Assembly: GCA_015233115.1 (NCBI GenBank)
Contig: JADFYJ010000006.1
Span: 595 to 64,594 of the forward strand
From: Candidatus Omnitrophota bacterium
GTDB lineage: Bacteria > Omnitrophota > Gorgyraeia > Zapsychrales > Zapsychraceae
Length of the DNA stretch: 64,000 nt
Reading direction: 5' to 3'
The notes under the pieces are model-generated. The model worked only from the letters and a program-made list of their open reading frames with translations. It did no database searches and was not told where the DNA came from. Numbering within the stretch: the first letter of the stretch is position 1; each line of letters opens with the position of its first letter. This document shows, piece after piece, positions 4,094-54,610 of this stretch. The position numbers were made by a program, and so were the translations under genes.

Positions 4094-4233
4094 TTTGGCA
4101 ATTCACCAAGAAGGATGATATACTTTAGCTAAGAGATGTGAAAGGTAAACCACCCGTAAGGATGGGACACAAAGCTATAGGGCCCTGTACCAGAGGTAGA
4201 GGGTAGCCAGTTGCCGCGAGAAAAAAATTTGTG

Positions 4234-4453: not shown

Positions 4454-4840
4454 ATGAGAAGAGGACAAAAAGGTTTTACGCTGGTGGAAATCATGATCGT
4501 TGTGGCGATTATCGCGTTATTAGCCGCGATCGCGATTCCTAACTTGCTAAGAGCCAAAGTTTCGGCTAACGAAGCTTTAGCGCAAAGCACATTAAAAACA
4601 CTATCAACGTCTATTGAAACTTATACAACAGCGAATAACGGTCTTTATCCGAACGCTGAGAACTTGTTAACGGGTGCTACACCGCCATATTTGAATACGG
4701 CTTATTGCGGTCTAAGTCTTAGCGGTTACACCTATGCTTGTACTTTGGCTACCGGGGGTTACACGATTGTGGCGACTAATAATTCAACCAGCACAGGTAC
4801 CAGAACATTCACAGTTACAACAGGAGGCATTTTACGCTAA
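4454..4840 (+). CDS. pilA: Type IV major pilin (PilA-like), class III signal peptide
   Basis: N-terminus MRRGQKGFTLVEIMIVVAIIALLAAIAIP has the prepilin G|FTLVE cleavage/methylation motif. A C-terminal Cys pair forms a D-region-like loop (CGLSLSGYTYAC). The caaggagg RBS precedes the start. Confidence 0.9.
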   Translation: MRRGQKGFTLVEIMIVVAIIALLAAIAIPNLLRAKVSANEALAQSTLKTLSTSIETYTTANNGLYPNAENLLTGATPPYLNTAYCGLSLSGYTYACTLATGGYTIVATNNSTSTGTRTFTVTTGGILR

Positions 4841-7915: not shown

Positions 7916-8221
7916 ATGAAATCGAATAAAGCGACAGTGATGATTGTAGCCGGAGCGATTATTTTCATGCTATTACTCGTCAATCATTGGGTATCCCGAC
8001 AAATGAAAGACGCGTTAAATGTGCCGAGAGTTGGCCATAGCATCCCTGTTCAAAAATCTTCAGAACCAAAGGCTGACCCAAAGTTTGATGATGCGGCGCC
8101 AGTATCTTCTGAAGCGCAACCAAAGGTTTTACCCAGAAAACATGGGCATATAAAACGGCCGTTTCCAGTGGTCAGTGAAGAAAAAAGTGATGCACCGCGG
8201 GGCCCGATTTTGGTGCAATGA
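7916..8221 (+). CDS. Hypothetical small membrane protein (one N-terminal TM segment, Pro-rich tail)
   Basis: ORF with a hydrophobic N-terminal segment (VMIVAGAIIFMLLLV). It is translationally coupled to the upstream gene, and no family was recognised. Confidence 0.4.
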   Translation: MKSNKATVMIVAGAIIFMLLLVNHWVSRQMKDALNVPRVGHSIPVQKSSEPKADPKFDDAAPVSSEAQPKVLPRKHGHIKRPFPVVSEEKSDAPRGPILVQ

Positions 8222-8318
8222 CAAAACGCGTGACAGTGTAACAATGTGACAATGAAAAAGCGGTTGGTTGGAAAGGCGCATTACTTTTTTAAATAATAAA
8301 TTAAATTTGAATTAAATA

Positions 8319-9441: not shown

Positions 9442-10018
9442 AATTAACCTCACACCACCGGAAGCGCGGAAAAAACGTACAGCTGGCGGCTTTATGAAGG
9501 GCCTGAGTGTGCCATTGGAAGTGATCATTGGCTTAGGCGGTGGTTTATTAATGTTACTGTTGTGTATTTATGTGGTACTGGTTTTCGCGAACCTGGGCAA
9601 AGCCGCTGAGCTGCGGTCATTGAATAAACAGTGGGAACAATTACAGCCGGAGAAAAAAGAAATTGATGCGGTATTAAGTGATTTGCGCTCTTTGCAGTCC
9701 ATTAAGAAAGATGTACAAAAAATTTGCAACGCGAACCGTATCCGTTGGTCTCGGAAGTTGAATATCATCACAGATGTTATTCCCAAAGGCGTCTGGCTGA
9801 TCAGAATTGATGCGGGCGACGCCAGTCTTTTTATTAAAGGCCGGGCGCTTTCAAAGCAGGGAGAGGAATTAAGGAATATTCATGCCTTTGTCGCGAATTT
9901 GAAAAACAATCCGGATTTTATGAGTGAGCTTAAAGATGTGGAATTGGGAAATATTCAATCTGTTAAAGTGAGCGGCGTTGATGTATCAGAGTTTTCGATC
10001 AAGGTGGTCTTAAAATGA
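9434..10018 (+). CDS. pilN: Type IV pilus assembly protein PilN
   Basis: Single N-proximal TM segment followed by a coiled-coil. Its position between pilM and pilO is typical, and its start overlaps pilM. Confidence 0.75.
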   Translation: MIEINLTPPEARKKRTAGGFMKGLSVPLEVIIGLGGGLLMLLLCIYVVLVFANLGKAAELRSLNKQWEQLQPEKKEIDAVLSDLRSLQSIKKDVQKICNANRIRWSRKLNIITDVIPKGVWLIRIDAGDASLFIKGRALSKQGEELRNIHAFVANLKNNPDFMSELKDVELGNIQSVKVSGVDVSEFSIKVVLK

Positions 10019-14135: not shown

Positions 14136-14137
14136 AA

Positions 14138-14172
14138 GTGACAGAGTAACCGAGTAACCGAGTAACAGAGTG
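14138..14172. repeat. Family-A tandem octamer block (GTGACAGA GTAACCGA GTAACCGA GTAACAGA)
   Basis: Directly follows the rng stop. Its inverted partner lies at 14327..14366. Confidence 0.8.
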
Positions 14173-14231
14173 AAAAGAAAAGCGATTGATGGGAAAAAAA
14201 TCTACTTTGTTTACTCTGTACTTTTTTCCTC

Positions 14232-14260
14232 TTGACGAAAAGGGATCTATTGCTTATACT
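14232..14260 (+). promoter_or_regulatory. sigma70-like promoter for rplU
   Basis: TTGACG, a 17-nt spacer, then TATACT. It lies between an inverted pair of family-A repeats. Confidence 0.5.
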
Positions 14261-14326
14261 TGGCAAACGATAAATTACGGCAAGACTAATTAGGTTCAGA
14301 GATTTTCCTATATTTTTTGTTTTTTT

Positions 14327-14366
14327 CTCTGTTACTTTGTTACTCGGTTACTTTGTCACTTAACAA
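14327..14366. repeat. Family-A block, reverse orientation (CTCTGTTACTTTGTTACTCGGTTACTTTGTCAC)
   Basis: Reverse complement of the block at 14138. It lies in the rplU 5' leader. Confidence 0.8.
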
Positions 14367-14387
14367 AATTTACTATGGAGGCAGTTT

Positions 14388-14696: not shown

Positions 14697-14767
14697 AATT
14701 TATTTTACCGGTTGATGGTTGATAGTTTTTGATTTTTGGAAGAAGCGATAGCTTCCTAAATCTTAAA

Positions 14768-14810
14768 AATTCCGGTTGGCCTTCATGGGGAAAACCGGAA
14801 TTTCTTTTTA
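14768..14810 (+). terminator. Rho-independent terminator after rplU
   Basis: Stem aattccggtt/aaccggaatt followed by a T-rich run. Confidence 0.65.
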
Positions 14811-14822
14811 ATTGAATCTTTA

Positions 14823-14866
14823 AAAGTAACAGAGTAACCGAGTAACAAAGTAACAGAGCAACAGAA
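14823..14866. repeat. Family-A block (forward)
   Basis: aaagtaacagagtaaccgagtaacaaagtaacagagcaacag, located after the rplU terminator. Confidence 0.8.
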
Positions 14867-14937
14867 TAAAAAACTAATATTAAGGCTGTTACTTTGATTT
14901 TGTTTTTTACAAGTATTGTTTTTTTGTAATCTTTTTT

Positions 14938-14978
14938 TGTGCTCTGTTACTCGGTCACTTTGTTACTTTGTTACTTTA
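14938..14978. repeat. Family-A block (reverse)
   Basis: gtgctctgttactcggtcactttgttactttgttacttt, located before obg. Confidence 0.8.
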
Positions 14979-16005: not shown

Positions 16006-16751
16006 TTAAAGTCGGCTCAGGCTTAATCGCCAATGAGCAATTTAAGCCAAGTAATACCCGCCTGCGCCGTTTGGTGGAACAGATATGTTCTGCGCAAAAA
16101 CGTGGCTATGAAGTTGTGTTAGTCTCTTCCGGCGCCATAGCATTGGGTATGGGCGAGATGCAATGTAAAAAGCGTCCGTCTGAATTATCCCAGCTACAAG
16201 CTTATGCTTCCACAGGCCAAGCTATTCTCATGCGCAAATATAATGATTTATTCCATAAATATAATTCCAAATGTGGACAAATACTTTTAACTTGGGATGA
16301 TTTTCGTAATGATTCACGTCATAAAAATGTCCGCCAGACCATCAAGACCATGTTGTCGTGGGGTGTGGTGCCGATCATTAATGAAAATGATTCAGTTTCC
16401 AACGATGAAATTAAATTCGGAGACAACGATAAATTATCCGCTTTAGTGGCCAGCTGTGTAGACGCGGATTTATTGCTTATTTTGTCGGATGTGGACGGTT
16501 TATATGACATGCGCACTCCGGATAAAAAATTATATCGTGAAGTAAAAGAGATCACGCAGGAAATAGAAAGTGTGGCTGGCGGTTCAGTTAACAAAAATGT
16601 GTCCAAAGGCGGTATGAAATCTAAAATTGACGCGATCAAAATCGCGACCGCATCCAAGGTAGCCTGTGTGATCGCGCACGGCCAGACTGAAAATATTTTA
16701 AACCGCGTTTTAGATGGGGAAAATATCGGAACATATTTTTACGAAAAATAA
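15966..16751 (+). CDS. proB: Glutamate 5-kinase (no PUA domain)
   Basis: VKVGSGLIAN... amino-acid kinase fold motifs. The gene is 261 aa and overlaps the obg 3' end. Confidence 0.8.
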   Translation: MSRTFLRKIKRVIVKVGSGLIANEQFKPSNTRLRRLVEQICSAQKRGYEVVLVSSGAIALGMGEMQCKKRPSELSQLQAYASTGQAILMRKYNDLFHKYNSKCGQILLTWDDFRNDSRHKNVRQTIKTMLSWGVVPIINENDSVSNDEIKFGDNDKLSALVASCVDADLLLILSDVDGLYDMRTPDKKLYREVKEITQEIESVAGGSVNKNVSKGGMKSKIDAIKIATASKVACVIAHGQTENILNRVLDGENIGTYFYEK

Positions 16752-16756
16752 AACGT

Positions 16757-16782
16757 CGTAGGGGCGATCTCCTGATCGCCCG
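16757..16782. repeat. Family-D 26-nt palindromic element (cgtaggggcgatctcctgatcgcccg)
   Basis: It is itself a hairpin (GGGCGATC tcct GATCGCCC). A T-run lies 9 nt downstream, so it may terminate proB transcription. Confidence 0.8.
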
Positions 16783-16827
16783 CAACAATCGTTTTTAAAT
16801 AAAAATCAAAAAGCAATAATTTTGTCA

Positions 16828-16853
16828 CGGGCGATCAGGAGATCGCCCCTACG
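16828..16853. repeat. Family-D element, exact reverse complement of 16757..16782
   Basis: cgggcgatcaggagatcgcccctacg. Confidence 0.85.
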
Positions 16854-16878
16854 AACAGTGTAAATGTAGGAACATAAT

Positions 16879-18701: not shown

Positions 18702-18795
18702 AGTGATTTCAAGTCGTTGTAGAAAAGTATCGTTTTGGTTGTTTTTAAAAATACCATTATTGAATGAAAAGTCATTAATTTAAAAACGATTGATG

Positions 18796-18822
18796 CGGGC
18801 GATCGGGAGATCGCCCCTACGA
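18796..18822. repeat. Family-D element (reverse orientation)
   Basis: gcgggcgatcgggagatcgcccctacg, located after nadD. Confidence 0.8.
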
Positions 18823-18861
18823 AAGAAACGATTATTTAAAGTGTAACAATATTTTGCTGTT

Positions 18862-18886
18862 GTAGGGGAGATCTCCTGATCTCCCG
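18862..18886. repeat. Family-D element (forward orientation, slightly diverged)
   Basis: gtaggggagatctcctgatctcccg. Confidence 0.75.
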
Positions 18887-18988
18887 TTACAAAATTATCG
18901 TTTTTTTGTTTTATTTTTTAATAAATTAAACCGTTTTTTTATTTCAAAATAAACATTTTTAAAATATGAAAAATCGAAAGGTCATCAT

Positions 18989-21205: not shown

Positions 21206-24200
21206 ATGTCTCAATTTCGTTTTAGTTTTTGGACTAAATTGGTGTGTTCTTTTTTGTCAGTGATTTTTGCCTTGCAATGCGTTTATCCTTTGCAAGCCGC
21301 GAAAGCTGATGTCTTAACCCTTCCGGCTCCTGGATCAATGGTCAGCATGAGTCCGGCATTCGTTCCAACTTTATTGCGCGGCATGACTGTTCATCCTGAT
21401 AATCCGCTTCGCTTTGATTTTATTTTAGATAAGGGCGAAGCGGAGTCACAAGGTCACAAAGACACAAGGTCACAAAGGGAAATAAGAATTGAAACGGAAA
21501 AGTTGGTAAATTATTTCCTCGCGTCTATGACAGTTCCAGAAAAAGATTTATGGGTCAATCTTTCCCCGAACGAACCAAACCGGATTGTTTCCAAAGATTT
21601 AGGCAAAACTGAAATGGGCCGGGATTTGCTGGCTCAAGATTATATCCTAAAACAATTAACGGCTTCTTTAATGCAGCCGGATGGAGAAGCAGGCAGGGAA
21701 TTGTGGTCCAGAATTTATGAACGGGCTAAAAAAGAATTAAACACGACAGATATCCCTTTAGACACTTTTAACAAAGTCTGGATCCTGCCCGAAAGCGCGA
21801 CCATTTACGAACACAACAATACCGTCTATATCACAGACGCGAAATTGAAGGTTATGACAGATAGTGATTATAATACTAGTTTTAAACAAACTGTCATTCC
21901 CGCGAAAGCGGGAATCCAATTAACTTCTTTAATTAAAAAAATTATCATCCCCGAAATCGAAAAAGAAGTGAACACCGGCAAAAATTTTGCCCAGCTTCGC
22001 CAGATTTATTATTCACTCATTCTCGCCAAATGGTACAAAGACGTAGTCCGAAACAGTCTGCTTGAGAAAGTGTATATTGGAAAAAATAAAGTCGACGGCC
22101 TTGATTTAAACCCAAACCAAACACTTTCTCCGGCCAATATTTACAAACAATACATGTCCGCCTTCAAACAAGGCGTTTACAACAAAATTAAAGAAGAATA
22201 CGACCCCCAAACTCAGCAAATCATAGCCCGAAAATATTTTTCCGGCGGGTTTCAAGACACGGCCATGACCATTAAACAAGCCGACGCAGCGCAGATTACT
22301 CAGGCGCAAGAAGGCGAACAAAGTAGTGTGGCCGTCACATTAGACAACATTTCTGTAAGTCAAGAACCAGAAATAACTGAAAAAAATTTAAATGATTCTG
22401 AACGGATTATTTATAATAAAATTCAATTTCCTGTTTCTCCGGCACTTATCAGAGAAATTAAGAAGAGTAAGAAATTAGCCGAGACATTTTGTCTAATAAC
22501 TGGTATGGAGAAAAATGATTCGTTGCTGGCACAATTTTTGTTGTTTCATTTGTTTATCCGTATGTCAAAAGCAGAAGAGGGAGCTGTTGCAAATGAATTT
22601 TATTCATCGGCAGGTTTATTAAATCCATCTTATCAAGAAAGGCTGCCGGACGAATTAAGAAAAGATCCTCTTAAAGTGTTAAATGATTTTTTAACTGAAA
22701 CTGGGAGGGAAGAACTGCGTGCTAAGAATTTTGAAAATTGGGATGACTTCAAAGATTATTTGCTGAAAACTGATCAAGAGCCGTTATGGGAAATTTTTCA
22801 AGAATGGGTTGCTGCGCTGCCATATCGGAAATTTTTTGAGTTAGCGCATATTGAAAAAGCAGCGCAGTTTTTAAGTACCCGTCCGGATATGGTCCCTGAA
22901 GGTTTCCGGGAATCATTTGAAGTATTTCAAGACCGTGGAAAACCTGCGCCGATCGAAGAAATCGTGTCTGTTGTTGAAGATAATTATGGTCCTTTGGAAA
23001 ATTTATGTGAGAAGCGGCAGGATATCAAGGAAGGAGATAATCCTTATTTAAAACGGCTTAATGTGGGTACTGTCGCCGATACATTTTTGGTGACTTTAAA
23101 GAATGGTCAGCAGGAAGCTTGGAAAATCGTGGCTCCAAGCAAAGAAGCAAAGATTCGTCAAGGTCTTGAAACGCTGCGGGAAGTTATGGGTGAACTCGAA
23201 AAAAACAAAGTTTTTTTTGCCGGCAATGAAACTATCCGGTTATCCCCTGTAAGATTTTTTAAGGAATTTGAAAAAGCAGTGCTCAGAGAACTGGATATGA
23301 ATACTGAAGCAAAGCAGGCACGCGATATGATCCCTCATTTTCCAAAAGGGTTTGCTAAACCTGAAATTAGAGAAAGTAAAAAGCAGATCCTTCGCATGGG
23401 TTTTATCAATGGAACTAAAATAACTTTAGTTACGGACACTGAAATTAGAAAACGCCTAGCGAAAAAGATATTGCCTTTAATTGGTTTACAGGCGTTAGGA
23501 GATGAAATTTTTCATGCGGATCCCCACCCGGGAAATATTTTTTATATTGAAGAAACCGGTGAGATTGTTCTTTTTGATTTTGGTCAGGTGGGGTATTTGA
23601 CGAAGTCCGTGCGAAGGGATTTGGTAAATTTGGCGGTTCAAATTTTACAGCATAGAGAGCAGCGCGGTTTACATCAGGTCATGTACCATGCTATAGGGAA
23701 AATTTTACAATCCAAAATTGCTGCGAAAATGGCAAGATGGGGTTTATTTAATTATTATTGGTATCAAGAGCAAAAAAATCAGAAGAGACCCCAATCTAGC
23801 CCGGATTCAATCCGAAAAACAGAAAATCGACAGAAAGATCACGAATCTGAAATATCATTTGAATCCACCTTGGACTTTGATGATGTGCTTAAAAAAATGG
23901 TTGAAACGACACCCCTTAATATTGATGAAATTTTGGATTTTCTTGAGTTAAAAGGGATACAGAATACAGGATATAACCGTGACAGTTTACACGCAAAAAT
24001 ATCTGAAATCCTCACATCAAAAAGTATTCAAGGGTGGAAAGAGCAACAGCCTTATATTATGGTTGACCGCCTTGTGTATGAAGCAGAAGCTCTTGGGTTG
24101 ATTATTCAGACGCCATATTCTTCCATCATATCGCATATAATGACGTTTGCTCATAAATATGCAGATATGGACGACAATATTGAAGCGGATGAGATCGGAT

Positions 24201-25441
24201 TTAAAACCGAAGTCTCTTCAATTCTGAGATTCCGAAGGGAAGGCGAAAGCATTTTTCCTGTTGTACACCGCATCTTTTTAGCCGCAGACCGGTTTGGATA
24301 TCCGATATTGTCATCTGCCTCAATGCTGATCAAATCCTTACTTTTAGCCGAAGGCGTCCAACGGACGCTGAAACAAAATTTGGAAGGCAGGAATGATTCA
24401 AACGATTCAGCCATGACCATCAAACACGCCGACGCCGCGCAGATAACCCGTGCACAAGTAGGCGAACAAAGTCGAGGCAAAGTTACATTGTCTGATCATG
24501 CGATGCAACAAATTATTTTACCGGATTACGCTGGCAATTTAGACCCATTAGCCTTAGGTGAAAAGCCTAGGAAAGTGATTGAATTAATGCGGAAGGGGCT
24601 CAATGTTCCGAAATTTTTTGTCATAAAATCTAATGGGACGGGAAAACTGGAAATTACAGATGAATTAAGGCGGGTTTTTGATTCTTTTAAAAAACCGGTT
24701 ATTGTCCGCAGTGCGCATCCTATGGAAGGCGGCGAACATCCCTTTCCTGGTATATTTAACAGTTACTCAGCAGTCAGTTATTTGGCTTTCGAAGATATTC
24801 CTGATGGTATACGGCCTGATGCCGAGGGCAAATGGGATAAAGATCCATTAAGCGTTGATTGGGCATATGAAGATATGGTGGAAACAGCATCACCAGATTG
24901 GAATGATAAATTAGATAAATATTTGAAAGCCAATGCTATTAAAGATTTTGATCCAAAAGCAATGGATGCGGTTTTGATGGAACAAGTTGACGTGGAAGTG
25001 TTTGGTATGTTTTTTACAGAAAGCCAAATCCATCCTAATAAAATTGAGATTCGTTATATTATCCCAGACACAAATGATGGCGGAATTATATTGTTTGATA
25101 AAACAACTCAATCACTCGAAGAAAATTCTTTACCACAACGTATCCAGGAAGTTCTTACGGAATTTGGAAAAACTGCGCAAAAGATTCATGACATATATGG
25201 TTTTCAACAAATTGAGTTAGCGTCTTCTAAAATTGATAAAAAGGTTTATGTTTTTCAATCCAGAAATTTTCCTATTGGCGATCCAAACAACGTGGCTCGT
25301 TATCCTGAATATCAAACCATCATGACGCCTAATGCGGTACTTGGTTATGGTGATTATAATCTGCCGGTTATAGTTTTAGATGGGTTAGATAGTGTCACAA
25401 AATATAAGGAAGATCCAAAATATCGAGCCTTGAGTGAATAA
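21206..25441 (+). CDS. Giant multidomain protein: signal peptide/anchor + unknown N-domain + UbiB/ABC1-type atypical kinase domain + PPDK_N/PEP-utilising-enzyme ATP-grasp-like domain; internal repeats
   Basis: N-terminus MSQFRFSFWTKLVCSFLSVIFALQCVYPLQAAKA is signal-like. The ABC1/UbiB hallmarks LSTRPDMVP, AWKIVAP (Lys), HADPHPGNIFY and DFG are present. At the C-terminus, ...NVPKFFVIKSNG... and KPVIVRSAHPMEGGEHPFPGIFNSYSAV resemble PPDK_N VAVRSSAxxEDxxxxSFAGQ. The motif SAMTIK[QH]ADAAQIT appears twice. Confidence 0.6.
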   Translation: MSQFRFSFWTKLVCSFLSVIFALQCVYPLQAAKADVLTLPAPGSMVSMSPAFVPTLLRGMTVHPDNPLRFDFILDKGEAESQGHKDTRSQREIRIETEKLVNYFLASMTVPEKDLWVNLSPNEPNRIVSKDLGKTEMGRDLLAQDYILKQLTASLMQPDGEAGRELWSRIYERAKKELNTTDIPLDTFNKVWILPESATIYEHNNTVYITDAKLKVMTDSDYNTSFKQTVIPAKAGIQLTSLIKKIIIPEIEKEVNTGKNFAQLRQIYYSLILAKWYKDVVRNSLLEKVYIGKNKVDGLDLNPNQTLSPANIYKQYMSAFKQGVYNKIKEEYDPQTQQIIARKYFSGGFQDTAMTIKQADAAQITQAQEGEQSSVAVTLDNISVSQEPEITEKNLNDSERIIYNKIQFPVSPALIREIKKSKKLAETFCLITGMEKNDSLLAQFLLFHLFIRMSKAEEGAVANEFYSSAGLLNPSYQERLPDELRKDPLKVLNDFLTETGREELRAKNFENWDDFKDYLLKTDQEPLWEIFQEWVAALPYRKFFELAHIEKAAQFLSTRPDMVPEGFRESFEVFQDRGKPAPIEEIVSVVEDNYGPLENLCEKRQDIKEGDNPYLKRLNVGTVADTFLVTLKNGQQEAWKIVAPSKEAKIRQGLETLREVMGELEKNKVFFAGNETIRLSPVRFFKEFEKAVLRELDMNTEAKQARDMIPHFPKGFAKPEIRESKKQILRMGFINGTKITLVTDTEIRKRLAKKILPLIGLQALGDEIFHADPHPGNIFYIEETGEIVLFDFGQVGYLTKSVRRDLVNLAVQILQHREQRGLHQVMYHAIGKILQSKIAAKMARWGLFNYYWYQEQKNQKRPQSSPDSIRKTENRQKDHESEISFESTLDFDDVLKKMVETTPLNIDEILDFLELKGIQNTGYNRDSLHAKISEILTSKSIQGWKEQQPYIMVDRLVYEAEALGLIIQTPYSSIISHIMTFAHKYADMDDNIEADEIGFKTEVSSILRFRREGESIFPVVHRIFLAADRFGYPILSSASMLIKSLLLAEGVQRTLKQNLEGRNDSNDSAMTIKHADAAQITRAQVGEQSRGKVTLSDHAMQQIILPDYAGNLDPLALGEKPRKVIELMRKGLNVPKFFVIKSNGTGKLEITDELRRVFDSFKKPVIVRSAHPMEGGEHPFPGIFNSYSAVSYLAFEDIPDGIRPDAEGKWDKDPLSVDWAYEDMVETASPDWNDKLDKYLKANAIKDFDPKAMDAVLMEQVDVEVFGMFFTESQIHPNKIEIRYIIPDTNDGGIILFDKTTQSLEENSLPQRIQEVLTEFGKTAQKIHDIYGFQQIELASSKIDKKVYVFQSRNFPIGDPNNVARYPEYQTIMTPNAVLGYGDYNLPVIVLDGLDSVTKYKEDPKYRALSE

Positions 25442-30347: not shown

Positions 30348-30350
30348 AGA

Positions 30351-30383
30351 TAGTATGTAGTATGTGGTATGTCGTATGTAGTG
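30351..30383. repeat. Family-B block (forward)
   Basis: tagtatgtagtatgtggtatgtcgtatgtagtg, located after the rpsA stop. Confidence 0.8.
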
Positions 30384-30579
30384 AAAAAGCAATTGATTGT
30401 GAAATAATAAATATATTAGAGCAAATATAGATAAAAAGCGTTGTGTGAAACGTATAGAAATTTTAGTCTGTTTAAAATATTTTTAAAAAATTTTGATTTC
30501 TATTTTTATTTATATTTAGGCTTTACGATATAACTAAGTATTACTTCATTTTGCTTGTTTTTTAAAAATTTTATTTTTA

Positions 30580-30610
30580 CGACATACCACATACGACATA
30601 CTACATACTA
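30580..30610. repeat. Family-B block (reverse)
   Basis: cgacataccacatacgacatactacatact. It ends 8 nt before the tyrS ATG. Confidence 0.8.
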
Positions 30611-30618
30611 TTTATTTT

Positions 30619-35028: not shown

Positions 35029-35030
35029 AT

Positions 35031-35068
35031 TTGATGGTTGTTGGTTGATGGTTGTTAGTTTTGGTTAA
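35031..35068. repeat. Family-C block (forward)
   Basis: ttgatggttgttggttgatggttgttagttttggttaa, located after the rplL stop. Confidence 0.75.
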
Positions 35069-35100
35069 AGCATTGGAGTTGTTTAAAATAAGCGCTTTTT

Positions 35101-35130
35101 CCAAAAACTATAAACTTCCAACTAAAACCC
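35101..35130. repeat. Family-C block (reverse)
   Basis: ccaaaaactataaacttccaactaaaaccc, located before rpoB. Confidence 0.65.
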
Positions 35131-35198
35131 CCGATATTATGTTTCAGGTGATGTTAATTTAATCAAACCAATACCGAACGGTTAAGATCGCCATATAT

Positions 35199-43615: not shown

Positions 43616-43627
43616 TGGTATACTTTT

Positions 43628-43662
43628 CCCCAACTTAGTCGGATTGCGTTGGGGATTTTTTT
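43628..43662 (+). terminator. Rho-independent terminator between rpsG and fusA
   Basis: Stem ccccaac/gttgggg followed by a T-run. Confidence 0.65.
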
Positions 43663-43778
43663 AGTATTGTGGTTTAACTACAGTTATTTTAAAAAAATAT
43701 ATAATCAAAATTTTGAACGTCAATCTTTGATCTGATGTTTAAAAATTAAATTGATTTAGAAAAGTAAGAGTAATTATT

Positions 43779-45872
43779 ATGGCTAAGACACCACTTATAG
43801 ATTATCGTAACATTGGGATCATTGCCCATATCGACGCGGGTAAAACCACGACGACTGAGCGTATTTTGTATTACACCGGCGTTATCCATAAAATGGGTAA
43901 TATCGATGATGGTAATACCGCTATGGATTGGATGGAGCAGGAACAAGAGCGCGGGATCACGATTACCTCGGCGAGTACCGTTTGTTTTTGGAAAGGCAAG
44001 CAGATCAATCTGATCGATACTCCCGGACACGTTGATTTTACGATGGAAGTCGAGCGTTCATTAAAAGTTTTGGACGGAGCGGTTGTGGTTTTGTGCGGAA
44101 CCAGCGGTGTTCAACCTCAAACCGAAACTGTCTGGCGTCAAGCTGACCGCTATAGTGTTCCCCGTATTTTATTCGTTAATAAATTAGACCGTTTAGGTGC
44201 GAATTTTGAGCGCGTTATTGATGAGAGTCACGAACGCTTAGGCGCAAATTCTGCCGCGATTCAGCTTCCGGATGGCCACGAAGACCAATTTCATGGCATT
44301 ATTGATATTATTGAAGAAAAATATTACGTATATAAAGATGATGCGGGCGAAGACATTGATACTTTACCTGTTCCGGAAAAATTTAAAGCTAAAGTCGCTG
44401 AGATGAGGCACAAATTGCTGGAACGTTTGTCAGACGCTGATGATATGATTATGGAGAGATTTTTAGAAGAAAAACCGGTAACGGTTGAAGAAATCAAGAG
44501 TGCTATCCGCCGCGGTGTTATTGCTTGTACGTTTGTCCCAGTTCTTTGCGGTACCGCATTGCGCAATAAAGGAGTTCAATTTGTTTTAGATGCTGTGACT
44601 GAATATTTACCTTCTCCGTTAGATATTCCTCCGGTTAAAGGAATTAATCCTTCTTCTAAAGAAGAAGAACTTCGTGCTCCAGATCCTGCCGCTCCTTTTT
44701 CAGGATTAGTTTTCAAAATTGCCACAGATCCTTACGTTGGTAAATTATTTTATACTCGTATTTATTCCGGAACAGTTAATTCTGGAGATTCAGTTTGGAA
44801 CGCGTCTGAGGGATGTAAAGAACGTATTTCTAAAATGGTTTTGATGCACGCCAACCGTCAGGAAATTGTTCCTTCTGTATCAGCCGGAGATATTATCGCT
44901 TTGGTAGGTTTAAAAGATAGCAAAACCGGAACCTCTTTGTGCGATCAAACTAAGAAAATTTTACTTGAGAATATGCGTATTCCTGAACCGGTTGTTTCCA
45001 TGTCGATTGAGCCAAAAACTAAAGCTGACTCAGACCGCATGGGTATGGTATTAAAGAAATTTCTCGATGAAGATCCTTCCTTACGTTGCACCTATAATCA
45101 TGAAACCGCTCAAAGTATTATTTCTGGTATGGGCGAGCTTCATTTGGAAATTATCATTGATCGTATGAAACGCGAATTTAATTTGGAGACGAGTGTAGGC
45201 CGTCCTGAAGTTGCTTATAAAGAGACTGTCCAGCGTAAAGTAACGGGTGTAGTGGGTAAACACATTGCCCAATCTGGCGGACGCGGTCAATATGGTCACT
45301 GTGTTATTGATATTGAACCTCAGGAAGTCAGAGGAACTGGTTATCAATTCGTTGATATGATTAAAGGTGGCGCGATTCCTCGTGAATTTATTAAATGCGT
45401 TGATGAAGGTTTACGCATGGGTTTGACTAGCGGTATTTTAGCCGGATACCCGGTTGTGGATATAAAAGTTACTCTTGTGGATGGTTCTTATCACGATGTT
45501 GACTCTAATGAGCTGGCTTTTCAGTTAGCCGCCAAAAACGCACTTAAAGATGCTTTAGCAAAAGCTGGTTCTATTTTCCTTGAGCCGATTATGGATATCG
45601 AAGTGGTAGCTCCGGAAGAATACATGAGCTCCGCGATCGGCGACTTGAATCAGCGCCGTGCTAAAATTTTAAGTTTAGGTCAACGCGGCCATTTGAAAGT
45701 GACCCGATGCGAGGTTCCTCTTTCAGAGATGTTTAATTACGTGAATGCATTACGTTCGTTATCACAAGGACGCGCGACATATACGATGGAACCAAAGTTT
45801 TACGATGTTGTTCCAAAATTCATAGCTGATAAAATTATCGGCGAAAGAACAGCGTCTGGACATAAAAGATAG
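43779..45872 (+). CDS. fusA: Elongation factor G
   Basis: [16 protein letters not shown]1 motif. It is 697 aa. Confidence 0.97.
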
Positions 45873-45904
45873 TGACAGAGTAACCGAGTAACCGAGTAAC
45901 CGAG
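45872..45904. repeat. Family-A block (forward)
   Basis: agtgacagagtaaccgagtaaccgagtaaccgag. It starts at the fusA stop codon. Confidence 0.8.
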
Positions 45905-46095
45905 AAAAAGCGGTTGGTGAAAAGCGAATGGTGAAAGCGTTGGCGTATAAAAAGTGATTAGGTTTTAAAAAATATATTATTTGATTAAAATTAAAGTTTG
46001 GTTTTTTTTGTTTATGTTTGGTAATTATTATTCGATTTGTTGTTTTGTTCTTTGGTAAAATAATTTTTTTGTTGTTAGTTATTTGTTATTTTTTT

Positions 46096-46130
46096 ACTTT
46101 GTTACTCGGTTACATGGTTACTTTGTTACT
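46096..46130. repeat. Family-A block (reverse)
   Basis: ctttgttactcggttacatggttactttgttact, in the tuf leader. Confidence 0.8.
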
Positions 46131-46163
46131 AATATTTTTTCCAAATAAAAAGGAGGCAGTCAC

Positions 46164-47357
46164 ATGGCTAAAGGTAAGTTTATACGTAATAAGCCGCACA
46201 TGAACATCGGTACGATCGGTCACGTAGACCACGGTAAAACAACTTTGTCTGCTGCGATTACTGCTGTACAGGCAAATCAAGGTAAAGCGGAATTCCGTAG
46301 TTATGATTCTATTGATAACGCTCCGGAAGAACGTGAACGTGGTGTTACGATTAATATCGCGCATTTGGAATATGAAACTGATAAACGTCACTATGCCCAC
46401 ATTGATTGTCCCGGACACGCTGACTATATCAAAAACATGATTACTGGTGCTGCTCAGATGGATGGCGCTATCCTCGTCGTTGCTGCTACCGACGGTGCTA
46501 TGCCTCAAACCAAAGAACACATTCTTTTAGCTCGTCAGGTAAACGTTCCTTCATTGGTCGTTTTCATGAATAAATGCGATCAGGTTGAAGACGCAGAATT
46601 GTTAGACCTGGTTGAAATGGAATTGCGAGAGTTGCTTTCCAAATATAACTATAACGGCGACAAAACTCCGATTATTCGCGGTAGCGCTTTAAATGCGTTA
46701 AATGCTCCTAAAGATCCAGCAGCCATTCAGCCGATTTTAGACCTTATGAAAGCGGTTGATGATTACTTTGTGGATCCAGTTCGTGAATTAGATAAGCCGT
46801 TCTTAATGGCTGTTGAAGACGTGTTCTCGATTTCCGGCCGCGGTACTGTAGCGACGGGTCGTATTGAACGCGGTAAGATTCATGTTGGAGAAGAAGTTGA
46901 AATTGTGGGTTTGAGCAAAACAGTCGGTAAAACGGTTGTTACCGGTGTGGAAATGTTCCGCAAGGAAATGGACGAAGGACAAGCTGGAGATAACGTAGGT
47001 TTACTCTTGCGCGGCGTTAGTAAAGATGATATTCAACGCGGGCAAGTTTTAGCAGCTATCGGTTCTATTACACCGCACAAGAAATTCAAGGCTAAAGCAT
47101 ACATTTTAACCAAGGAAGAAGGCGGCCGTCATACTCCGTTCTTCACTGGTTACAGACCGCAGTTTTATTTCCGTACGACAGACGTCACGGGTACGGCGAC
47201 ATTACCAGCAGGTCAAGAAATGTGTATGCCTGGCGATAACGTAGAAATGGTCGTGGAATTGCTCGAGCCGATCGCTTGCGAAAAAGAATTGCGTTTTGCT
47301 ATTCGCGAAGGCGGCAGAACAGTTGGAGCTGGTGTTATCCACGAGATTATTGAATAA
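46164..47357 (+). CDS. tuf: Elongation factor Tu
   Basis: [18 protein letters not shown] and NKCD motifs. An aaaggagg RBS precedes it, and it is 397 aa. Confidence 0.97.
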
Positions 47358-52503: not shown

Positions 52504-52508
52504 TAAAG

Positions 52509-52590
52509 GTAGTATGTAGTGCGTAGTATGTCGTATGTAGAAAAAGAAAAATAATAAAAGCTGTATGTCGTGCGCAGTATTAAGTATGTA
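52509..52590. repeat. Family-B blocks (forward, two copies)
   Basis: gtagtatgtagtgcgtagtatgtcgtatgtag and a degenerate copy ctgtatgtcgtgcgcagtattaagtatgta, located after the rpsQ stop. Confidence 0.75.
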
Positions 52591-52610
52591 AAAAAGATAC
52601 GTTTTTAAAA

Positions 52611-52640
52611 CCACATACCACATACCACATACCACATACT
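52611..52640. repeat. Family-B block (reverse)
   Basis: ccacataccacataccacataccacatact, located before rplN. Confidence 0.8.
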
Positions 52641-52656
52641 CTACAAAAGGTTACTT

Positions 52657-54117: not shown

Positions 54118-54513
54118 ATGTCATTAAGTGATCCGATTAGTAATTTTTTAACAAATGTCCGAAACGCCATCAAAGTCCGTAAAGAAACGGTTGATGTTCC
54201 TGCGTCAAAATTAGTGGGAAAAATCCTTGAAATATTCAAGGCGGATGGCTACATCGAAGATTTCCGTTTGATGAAGGATAATGTGCAGGGCACATACAAG
54301 ATTTATTTGAAATATCAGGGAAAAGCTTCCGCCATTACTGGGTTGAAGCGTATTTCAAAACCAGGTTTAAGAGTTTATGTTCAACGAGACGAAATTCCAA
54401 AAGTATTGAACGGTTTAGGTACGGCAGTCATTTCAACGTCCAAAGGCGTGGTGACCAACCGTGAAGCTAAAAAGTTAAGTGCCGGCGGAGAAGTCTTATG
54501 TTACATTTGGTAG
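54118..54513 (+). CDS. rpsH: 30S ribosomal protein S8
   Basis: MSLSDPISNFLTNVRNA. Confidence 0.95.
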   Translation: MSLSDPISNFLTNVRNAIKVRKETVDVPASKLVGKILEIFKADGYIEDFRLMKDNVQGTYKIYLKYQGKASAITGLKRISKPGLRVYVQRDEIPKVLNGLGTAVISTSKGVVTNREAKKLSAGGEVLCYIW

Positions 54514-54610
54514 GCCGTTCGCGGGAGCTCACGGCACTACTTCGGACATTTCGTCCTCGGTCGGCCGTTCGCAGGAGCTCACGGCACTACTTCGGACATT
54601 GCGTCCTCGG
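54513..54610. repeat. Direct tandem repeat, 2 x 48 nt (period 50) between rpsH and rplF
   Basis: ggccgttcgc[g/a]ggagctcacggcactacttcggacatt[t/g]cgtcctcgg x2. It begins at the last base of the rpsH stop codon. Confidence 0.9.

Follow-up and report, generated by a model that had tools for sequence, protein, structure and literature searches.

The fusA-tuf bracket and its counterparts in the window

The stretch analyzed here, 64,000 nucleotides of contig JADFYJ010000006.1 from a Candidatus Omnitrophota bacterium (hereafter called the window), carries fusA, encoding elongation factor G (EF-G), followed on the same strand by tuf, and the spacer between the two genes is occupied by a pair of octamer arrays in inverted orientation. 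We call such a pair, together with the sequence that it encloses, a bracket, and the one at fusA-tuf is bracket A3. A3 is a lineage-specific insertion of ~260 nt (45872-46131) right behind the fusA stop codon. With A3 included, the window has at least eight full brackets, which are built from three families of repeat units. The features of the fusA-tuf region are as follows.

43779 to 45872, + strand: fusA (EF-G), the gene upstream of bracket A3, from the open reading frame (ORF) list
45872 to 45904, + strand: A3 forward arm, GTGACAGA followed by three copies of GTAACCGA, from reading of the sequence, pattern search and Tandem Repeats Finder (TRF)
45905 to 45939, + strand: A3 sub-terminal box, 2.5 copies of AAAAGCGRWTGGTG, TRF period 14
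45940 to 46091, + strand: A3 loop, AT-rich and T-skewed (72% A+T), an interior without similarity to the interiors of the other brackets
46092 to 46131, + strand: A3 reverse arm (TTTTAC TTTGTTAC TCGGTTAC ATGGTTAC TTTGTTAC TA), from an inverted-repeat search, the complement of 45870-45909
46132 to 46163, + strand: spacer TTTTTTCCAAATAAAAAGGAGGCAGTCAC, of ancestral type and bearing the ribosome-binding site (RBS), followed by tuf at 46164-47357

The ORF list and the sequence place the fusA TAG at 45870-45872, where it already belongs to the A3 stem: the first base of A3 is the G of the stop codon, and the array reads GTGACAGA GTAACCGA GTAACCGA GTAACCGA G. TRF describes the forward array as 3.4 copies of period 8 with a 100% match (45878-45904) and the reverse side as 6.8 copies of period 8 (46078-46130), within which the array TTGTTAC TCGGTTAC ATGGTTAC TTTGTTAC takes up 46096-46130. 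The best inverted repeat joins 45870-45909 to 46092-46131, two stretches of 40 nt that are 83% complementary and lie 182 nt apart, and the A-run of the box pairs with the T-run preceding the reverse arm. In the predicted fold of the sense-strand RNA, the arms are paired near-continuously (minimum free energy [MFE], -77.8 kcal/mol; z, -4.0), with a stem of 17+13+ base pairs in the MFE fold and an arm duplex of -51.7 kcal/mol. An earlier note on this DNA had described the bracket as a forward block at 45872-45904 starting on the fusA TAG and a reverse block at 46096-46130, and our analysis bears this out. The distance of about 35 nt that it gave from the reverse block to the tuf RBS needs correction: from the end of the reverse arm it is 33 nt to the tuf ATG (46164) and about 19 nt to the AAGGAGG RBS (46150-46156). 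The second repeat motif that it had pointed out inside the bracket was also recovered, with TRF giving 2.2 copies of period 14 at 45906-45936, and a partial copy lies upstream of pilM at 8255-8279.

The layout recurs in the window far beyond chance. Scanning the whole window with the family A pattern GTAACCGAGTAAC at no more than 2 mismatches, with 100 shuffles as the control, gave 18 matches against 1.13 expected, and 0 of the 100 shuffles had as many. All 18 matches are confined to three loci (14138-14351, 14826-14974, and 45872-46129), which are the forward/reverse pairs before rplU, obg, and tuf, confirming the earlier claim that the bracket is not a chance feature and recurs at these genes. 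Brackets of the other two families were found by reading every intergenic region of the window. The units are an octamer in family A, TNGTATG (TAGTATG) in family B, and TTGGTTT/TGATGGT in family C.

213 to 369, + strand: bracket C1 (TTGGTTT/TTAATGG), arms 213-258 and 323-369, upstream of a NuoF-like gene (394), fold z -3.8
2136 to 2320, + strand: bracket B1 (heptamer TNGTATG), arms 2136-2160 and 2284-2320, from the NuoF-like hydrogenase subunit gene to the [FeFe]-hydrogenase gene, fold z -3.6
8230 to 8279, + strand: half-bracket A', GTGACAGT GTAACAAT GTGACAAT plus the box AAAAAGCGGTTGGTTGG, after the ORF at 7916-8221
14136 to 14362, + strand: bracket A1, arms 14136-14172 and 14325-14362, from the RNase E/G gene to rplU, fold z -9.7
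14822 to 14978, + strand: bracket A2, arms 14822-14866 and 14938-14978, from rplU (with a terminator hairpin) to obg, fold z -7.0
30349 to 30612, + strand: bracket B2, arms 30349-30384 and 30576-30612, from rpsA (S1) to tyrS, fold z -8.7
35030 to 35132, + strand: bracket C2 (TGATGGT/TGTTGGT), arms 35030-35067 and 35099-35132, from rplL to rpoB, fold z -3.2
52508 to 52643, + strand: bracket B3, arms 52508-52541 and 52608-52643, from rpsQ to rplN, fold z -3.6

For the half-bracket A', no recognizable reverse arm was found ahead of pilM (8386). The brackets have a common blueprint that runs from the stop codon through the forward array, an A-run (the box), an AT-rich loop, a T-run, and the reverse array to the RBS. 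They sit between co-oriented genes and in some cases inside operons (hydrogenase, rplL-rpoB, and rpsQ-rplN). The forward arm begins 0 to 12 nt past the stop codon in eight of nine cases, and the reverse arm ends 8 to 33 nt ahead of the start codon in seven of eight. Conservation of the latter spacing, which the earlier note had put forward for checking, was found in part, in that the distances within family A are similar (about 26, 29, and 33 nt) but those over all families are not fixed (8 to 68 nt). Each unit consists of a conserved 5-nt core (GTRAC, GTATG, or TGGTT) and 2 to 3 variable bases, and every forward arm, with its period of 7 or 8, can be read to have a stop codon (TAA, TAG, or TGA) in each of the three frames over ~24 nt, as MacGregor (2015) also noted for TAACTGA. 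Arms of the same family are 85 to 90% alike. The suspicion that the loci resemble each other only in a short octamer is right for the interiors (~50 to 190 nt long), which fail to align among A1, A2, and A3 and among B1, B2, and B3, but not for the ends, where the arrays and a box of 13 to 17 nt by the forward arm are shared.

Both arms of any one bracket always belong to the same family, whereas the two arms that flank an operon, a reverse arm on its upstream side and a forward arm on its downstream side, are usually of different families (upstream/downstream, C/B, B/A', B/C, C/A, and A/B). This match across the spacer and not across the gene indicates that the functional unit is the hairpin over the spacer rather than the gene. 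Pairing of mRNA ends, in which a reverse arm in the 5' untranslated region would join a forward arm at the 3' end of one transcript, was rejected because the families flanking operons differ.

The box is short and purine-rich and adjoins the left arm. Its pattern AAAAGYRRWTGRT, derived post hoc, has 6 matches in the window (2159, 8256, 14178, 30385, 45906, and 45920) against 0.16 expected, all on the + strand and each directly after a forward arm of family A or B, with no further matches in the window. We rejected the box as a -35 element, as there was no -10 hexamer at the right spacing.

According to Pfam, the neighbors of the brackets include a NuoF-like hydrogenase subunit, an [FeFe]-hydrogenase, PilM, RNase E/G, S1, and TyrRS. 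The specific tie to the translation machinery that had been proposed earlier was not upheld, since the same layout is found at the hydrogenase genes, tyrS, and rpoB, with a half-bracket before pilM, and the apparent link comes from a window dominated by translation genes.

Other repeats and shared motifs were seen beside the brackets. Right after the stop codon of rplU (14697-14810 region), which is not followed by rpmA, lies a family-C-like forward array, GGTTGATGGTTGATAGTTTTTGATTTTTGG, without a clear partner, and between this array and A2 there is a terminator-like hairpin, AATTCCGGTT...AACCGGAATT plus a T-run, at about 14767-14810 (hairpin, 14767-14806). The RBS context GGAGGCAGT is identical before the start codons of rplU (14379-14387) and tuf (46152-46160). 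At 21445-21475, inside a 1411-amino-acid ORF (21206-25441), octamers form an array whose orientation is stop-free, GTCACAAG GTCACAAA GACACAAG GTCACAAA, and which is apparently translated. A separate GC-rich family with a REP-like look consists of ~27-nt palindromic units, GTAGGGGCGATCTCCTGATCGCCCG and its complement, in inverted pairs at 16752-16878 and 18795-18890. Between an rpsH-like ORF (54118-54513) and the next ribosomal protein gene (54666), the GC-rich 50-nt unit GGTAGGCCGTTCGCAGGAGCTCACGGCACTACTTCGGACATTGCGTCCTC is tandemly doubled with a 94% match (54509-54610), which is unusual compared with the otherwise AT-rich spacers.

Empty sites in relatives and octamer brackets in other contigs

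The EF-G of the window matches NCBI MBF0478700.1 ("elongation factor G [Candidatus Omnitrophica bacterium]") with 100% identity. For comparison, we used the orthologous region of six other Omnitrophota (122 kb in total), whose EF-G proteins are 69 to 75% identical to it. At three of the bracket sites the spacers have the following lengths.

fusA-tuf spacer: 38-69 nt in the six relatives, 291 nt in the window
rpsQ-rplN spacer: 0-11 nt in the six relatives (genes abut or overlap), 150 nt in the window
rplL-rpoB spacer: 48-110 nt in the six relatives, 170 nt in the window

Beyond the A3 reverse arm, the next 33 nt (TTTTTTCCAAATAAAAAGGAGG...) are like the whole fusA-tuf spacer of the relatives in both length and sequence, and this resemblance places the A3 element directly behind the fusA stop codon. 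A generic detector, which called TRF arrays of period 6 to 9 or 14 to 16 that have a reverse-complement partner within 500 nt, found 12 paired arrays in the window and 0 in the 122 kb of the six relatives. Judged from these comparisons, the brackets are lineage-specific insertions into compact operons.

One relative, L082 (Omnitrophota metagenome-assembled genome GCA_015233495.1), has unpaired arrays directly past stop codons, namely, five copies of AGGACAC between rpsS and rplV (16572-16606) and two copies of TAAGACTCAAGGGC between rpsG and fusA (9911-9941), which indicates that single arrays occur in the phylum without brackets. The rpsG-fusA spacer of the window (43616-43778) is 163 nt long, with 25% GC, a hairpin (CCCCAACTTAGTCGGATTGCGTTGGGG) followed by a T-run, and no arrays. 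The same spacer measures 1 to 103 nt in the relatives (no more than 41 nt in four of six and 103 nt in L081 and L082), and in the window it may represent another lineage-specific insert, in this case array-less.

A metagenome scan with GTAACNGAGTAACNGAGTAAC returned 120 loci. These arrays are mainly intergenic, and the majority are accompanied by a strongly complementary partner no more than 650 nt away. Family A octamer arrays, for which the metagenome relatives use the unit GTAACTGA, form inverted brackets in unrelated contigs of 38 to 69% GC with the layout stop-array...array-start. The orientation of 142 metagenome arrays with respect to ORFs (32 forward-after-stop and 17 reverse-after-stop) was uninformative because the forward units contain stop codons.

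A single locus of a ~45-kb phage lineage accounts for 24 of the metagenome loci (among them L087, L103, L110, L115, L117-L119, L122, and L133) and for 111 of the 120 viral matches (L224-L343). Nucleotide diversity in the unascertained arm of its bracket (arm 1) is 0.015 compared to 0.127 in the adjacent coding sequence. The bracket, consisting of GGTAACCGGGTAACCTAGGTAACC, a 77-nt TATATA-rich interior, and GGTTACTCGGTTACTCGGTTACC, follows directly after a stop codon and marks the point where the downstream sequence switches among at least two unrelated versions.

Through the arrays we also met three PF05635 genes (L092, 1849-2196; L116, 369-701 on the - strand; and L134, 711-1037), each of them between inverted arrays of tandem octamers, and two long-spacer brackets enclose a small ORF for this 23S rRNA intervening-sequence (IVS) protein (E, 9e-35 and 9e-34). 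The ascertainment bias was removed by picking PF05635 proteins by homology alone and then fetching their contigs. All four loci picked in this way, which are independent of each other (P0126, P0128, P0164, and P0207) are flanked by inverted octamer arrays, namely, GGTAACAA/GGTGACAA, GGAGTAAT/GGAGTGAT, GGGTGACT, and GTAACAGA/GTAACAAA, and the units of the GTAACAGA/GTAACAAA locus are identical to those of family A. The unit number at a PF05635 locus varies by sample, with 4 in L207 and ~16 in L209 and L215. These bracket loci lie in unrelated contigs (L207-L215, L216-L219, L220, and L221-L223); a leader upstream of the ATG, TTTTCGGGATTAAGCAnAAAG, is common to L207 and L216, and the version in L220 is shorter and diverged (TTTTCCGGATTAAGCAGAAAAA). 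In the literature, we found no publication on PF05635 genes in brackets of simple sequence repeats (SSRs) outside rRNA, and none on repeats flanking genes in Babela/TM6 genomes.

The predicted stem and the explanations for it

We interpret the brackets as ORF-less, IVS-like elements of paired inverted arrays whose co-transcribed stem would cut or insulate the fusA/tuf mRNA, and we consider the chance that this is correct to be about even. RNA polymerase would read through the intercistronic bracket sites, as is expected of brackets that lie inside operons and mostly lack promoters, and the two arms would pair into a double-stranded RNA (dsRNA) stem of ~30 to 40 bp with an AU-rich loop. Such a stem could act as ribosomal IVSs or REP/Correia hairpins do, namely, as a substrate of RNase III and/or a barrier to exonucleases, so that the fusA/tuf polycistronic mRNA would be cut or insulated between the genes while the tuf RBS stays free. 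The sequences themselves show the anatomy of the brackets, their recurrence, their status as insertions, the predicted stem, and the link to PF05635 elements; we infer transcription through the element, cleavage by RNase III, and any benefit to the cell.

The pairing itself is predicted consistently. All eight full brackets fold better than their dinucleotide shuffles (z, -3.2 to -9.7), and the arm duplexes have energies of -16 to -57 kcal/mol. There is no terminator-like site in 45700-46300, and the bracket stems enclose loops of 20 to 180 nt, unlike an intrinsic terminator, which is a short, GC-rich hairpin with a loop of 3 to 8 nt and a U-tract behind it. A known cis-regulatory RNA (ribosomal protein leaders or riboswitches) was rejected, as Rfam models at the gathering score gave no match at the brackets and matched elsewhere in the window only two tRNAs and one c-di-GMP-I riboswitch. 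The riboswitch aptamer (4134-4218, + strand; 58.7 bits against a gathering score of 35) sits in the 360-nt leader of a 128-amino-acid ORF (4454-4840), upstream of a pilus gene cluster.

Several results weigh against a role for the stem in RNA. The fold z-scores are alike on both strands, and the more stable arm duplex is that of the + strand in A1, A3, B2, C1, and C2 and that of the - strand in B1 and B3; this inconsistency (five brackets to two) also led us to reject a strand bias in G.U wobbles as proof of pairing in the sense strand. No bracket-specific covariation was seen, as arms of different brackets within a family pair as well as arms of the same bracket, and complementarity between such interchangeable arms could stem from common descent or copying instead of selection for pairing. 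The variable position of the unit is often mismatched between the arms. A2 comes after the intrinsic-terminator-like hairpin, where read-through may be low, and the conserved box is not accounted for by a stem. As to the connection with IVS elements, tblastn with two PF05635 proteins found no PF05635 gene in the window, and an nhmmer profile of the box had no significant match in seven PF05635 loci, on which grounds AAAAGYRRWTGRT was rejected as an end common to PF05635 elements. The conserved leader of PF05635 elements, TTTCGGGATTAAGCA, was likewise not found in the window.

A serious rival is that the brackets are neutral or selfish DNA, in which arrays grew by slippage, their partners were kept alike by template switching, gene conversion, or MITE-like copying (MITE, miniature inverted-repeat transposable element), and the whole persists as a harmless passenger with no role in expression. 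This is well within the possible, although we do not think it likely. It agrees with the absence of brackets from the six relatives, the interchangeable arms with no compensatory pattern, the unconserved interiors, the lack of a strand bias, and the change from 4 to ~16 units between samples at a PF05635 locus, and slippage would also explain the dominance of heptamers (Mrazek 2007, as cited in PMC4679880). It sits less well with the precise placement of the arms next to stop codons (0 to 12 nt in 8/9) and start codons (8 to 33 nt in 7/8), with a conserved box whose position is shared by families A and B, with the low diversity of phage arm 1 relative to the adjacent coding sequence, and with the finding that array loci are more stable than control intergenic regions (Rehm et al., PMC4692102). 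Moreover, a selfish origin would still give a long dsRNA stem once the element is transcribed. Alternatively, the arrays could act as single-stranded RNA that binds a multimeric protein (S1, a cold-shock protein, or a PF05635-like pentamer) and thereby tunes translation or decay, a model for which MacGregor 2015 argues (PMC4679880). A 5-nt core with 2 to 3 variable bases is typical of repeated protein sites, and the reverse arrays lie 8 to 33 nt upstream of start codons, but three unrelated units would call for three separate proteins or a single one of very broad tolerance, the arrays of Beggiatoaceae are oriented the other way round with respect to the start codon, and the obligatory pairing of forward and reverse arrays of the same family is left unexplained; we find this model unlikely.

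The reading in the earlier note, a DNA-level regulatory bracket around the promoters of translation genes, for example, operator arrays for promoter looping, seems to us quite improbable. The arrays are indeed symmetric about the spacer, and A1, before rplU, encloses a good sigma-70-like promoter (TTGACG-17-TATACT, at 14232-14260) along with its box (14178-14190). However, this was the only good promoter in the brackets, and the promoter scan found no promoter-like site within C1, B1, A2, or B3. In the fusA-tuf spacer, the only sigma-70-like site is a weak TTTAAA-16-TAAAAT (45964-45991) at the level of shuffled sequence, and the description of A3 as flanking the tuf promoter region is not sustained. 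In addition, the brackets are also present at hydrogenase genes and tyrS, they are missing from relatives with the same genes, and a period of 7 to 8 bp does not keep successive sites facing the same side of the helix. The same layout of inverted repeat, AT-rich spacer, and inverted repeat is that of invertible promoter switches (invertons), in which a recombinase acts at the repeats and inverts the spacer. Here all brackets point the same way, with the box by the left arm and the T-rich side at the right; the brackets serve essential housekeeping genes, promoters are lacking in most spacers, and no recombinase gene turned up among the window ORFs examined, all of which makes an inverton highly improbable.

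Returning to the IVS-like interpretation, a wider proposal can be made, which we offer tentatively and regard as rather less likely than not. The inverted bracket of 7- to 8-mers may be the common chassis of widespread, unrecognized selfish RNA-level intervening elements, of which the full copies would carry PF05635 (Avd-like, a four-helix bundle), the 23S IVSs would be copies that landed in rRNA, and the brackets of the window would be MITE-like derivatives in intercistronic gaps. Such elements would be tolerated through removal or severing by RNase III, with a PF05635 pentamer perhaps recognizing the units.

For decades, intergenic heptamer and octamer arrays have been listed from cyanobacteria, Xanthomonas, and Beggiatoaceae with no accepted function. 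Further questions are how the intervening sequences of 23S rRNA arose and what their PF05635 protein does. The window provides a bridge, at the level of sequence, between SSR arrays and PF05635/IVS elements. It is also a compact natural experiment, in which three repeat families follow one blueprint in otherwise invariant ribosomal protein operons and the relatives supply clean empty sites. Should the stems be processed, the elements would reshape the mRNA architecture of operons in an uncultured phylum, and the placement of the repeats at stop and start codons would be explained; if they are not, the brackets are a clear case of selfish repeat expansion within essential operons.

Relation to known repeat and intervening elements

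Correia elements of Neisseria, ERIC, and REP/BIME are short, ORF-less inverted-repeat elements that are intergenic and co-transcribed, and their hairpins are acted on by RNase III or exonucleases and sometimes carry promoters. These families have conserved interiors and terminal repeats of unique sequence. The brackets are like MITEs and Correia elements in having terminal inverted repeats, dispersed copies, and empty sites in relatives, all three of which are found here. They differ in that the copies in the window share only the tandem-array ends and the box, with a different interior in each copy. A check for target-site duplications found no consistent direct repeat: both ends of A3 are flanked by TA, and A1 and A2 show AA..TT extensions of the stem.

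The heptamer arrays of Xanthomonas come close in layout. Rehm et al. (2015, PMC4692102) described 70 to 75 convergent pairs of GGGAATC arrays per genome, 89 to 93% of them intergenic, no more than 50 bp from stop codons or upstream of ORFs, and mostly transcribed, with unknown function, and found such loci to be more stable than control intergenic regions. Common to these arrays and the brackets are tandem, head-to-tail units of 7 (6 to 9) nt in at least 3 copies, array pairs close together on opposite strands, an intergenic location no more than 50 bp from a stop codon or the next ORF, and co-oriented neighboring genes. The Xanthomonas arrays have ~4 copies and are about 90% intergenic, and the window brackets have 3 to 5 units of 7 to 8 nt per end. 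In contrast to GGGAATC, the window units GTAACCGA, TAGTATG, and TTGGTTT have no GGG tracts, so that no quadruplex is possible, and the window further differs in the 8-nt period of one family, the coexistence of three families, the conserved box at the left arm, and the long (50 to 190 nt), AT-rich spacers. Together with the cyanobacterial heptamer repeats, the Xanthomonas arrays come under the broader heading of long simple sequence repeats (Mrazek 2007). Polymerase slippage has been proposed as the reason for the predominance of heptamers (Mrazek 2007, as cited in PMC4679880).

The TAACTGA direct arrays of Beggiatoaceae, cyanobacteria, and Bacteroidetes are placed before start codons, including those in ribosomal protein operons and at fusA, and have been proposed to bind S1, Csp, or CsrA (MacGregor 2015, PMC4679880). 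They carry stop codons in the forward orientation, and only one inverted case is reported among 170 (MacGregor 2015, PMC4679880). The family A unit GTAACCGA/GTAACAGA contains TAACCGA/TAACAGA and, like TAACTGA, is found in ribosomal protein operons and next to fusA and is missing in close relatives. It is, however, 8 nt long, a one-base variant of TAACTGA plus G. Also, whereas TAACTGA arrays are single, direct, forward, and right upstream of start codons, the forward arrays of the window follow stop codons, their reverse complements precede start codons, and the two are always paired.

Another close system is the 23S IVS of Coxiella burnetii. Its stem of terminal inverted repeats is 28 bp long, its 5' end carries GACAGAT heptamers in tandem, it includes a PF05635-type ORF, and RNase III cuts it at the first repeat (Warrier et al., PMC4990558). 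The brackets likewise have tandem units at the 5' end and terminal inverted repeats, the ~28-bp stem of the IVS having its counterpart in the 17+13+ bp stem of A3, and they are inserted into a highly transcribed unit with a sporadic distribution. PF05635 genes in metagenome and genome contigs lie inside the same kind of octamer bracket. The window elements differ in being ORF-less and in lying between protein-coding genes, in a window without rRNA, and not in helix 25 or 45 of the 23S molecule. Excision by RNase III is a feature of the IVS that, by analogy, may extend to the brackets.

In conclusion, a class of repeats that had not previously been noted in Omnitrophota is present in this phylum, and its link to PF05635/IVS elements has been under-described. 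On the evidence of their sequences, the brackets of the window belong to the described class of convergent intergenic heptamer and octamer arrays near stop and start codons and form a variant within it.

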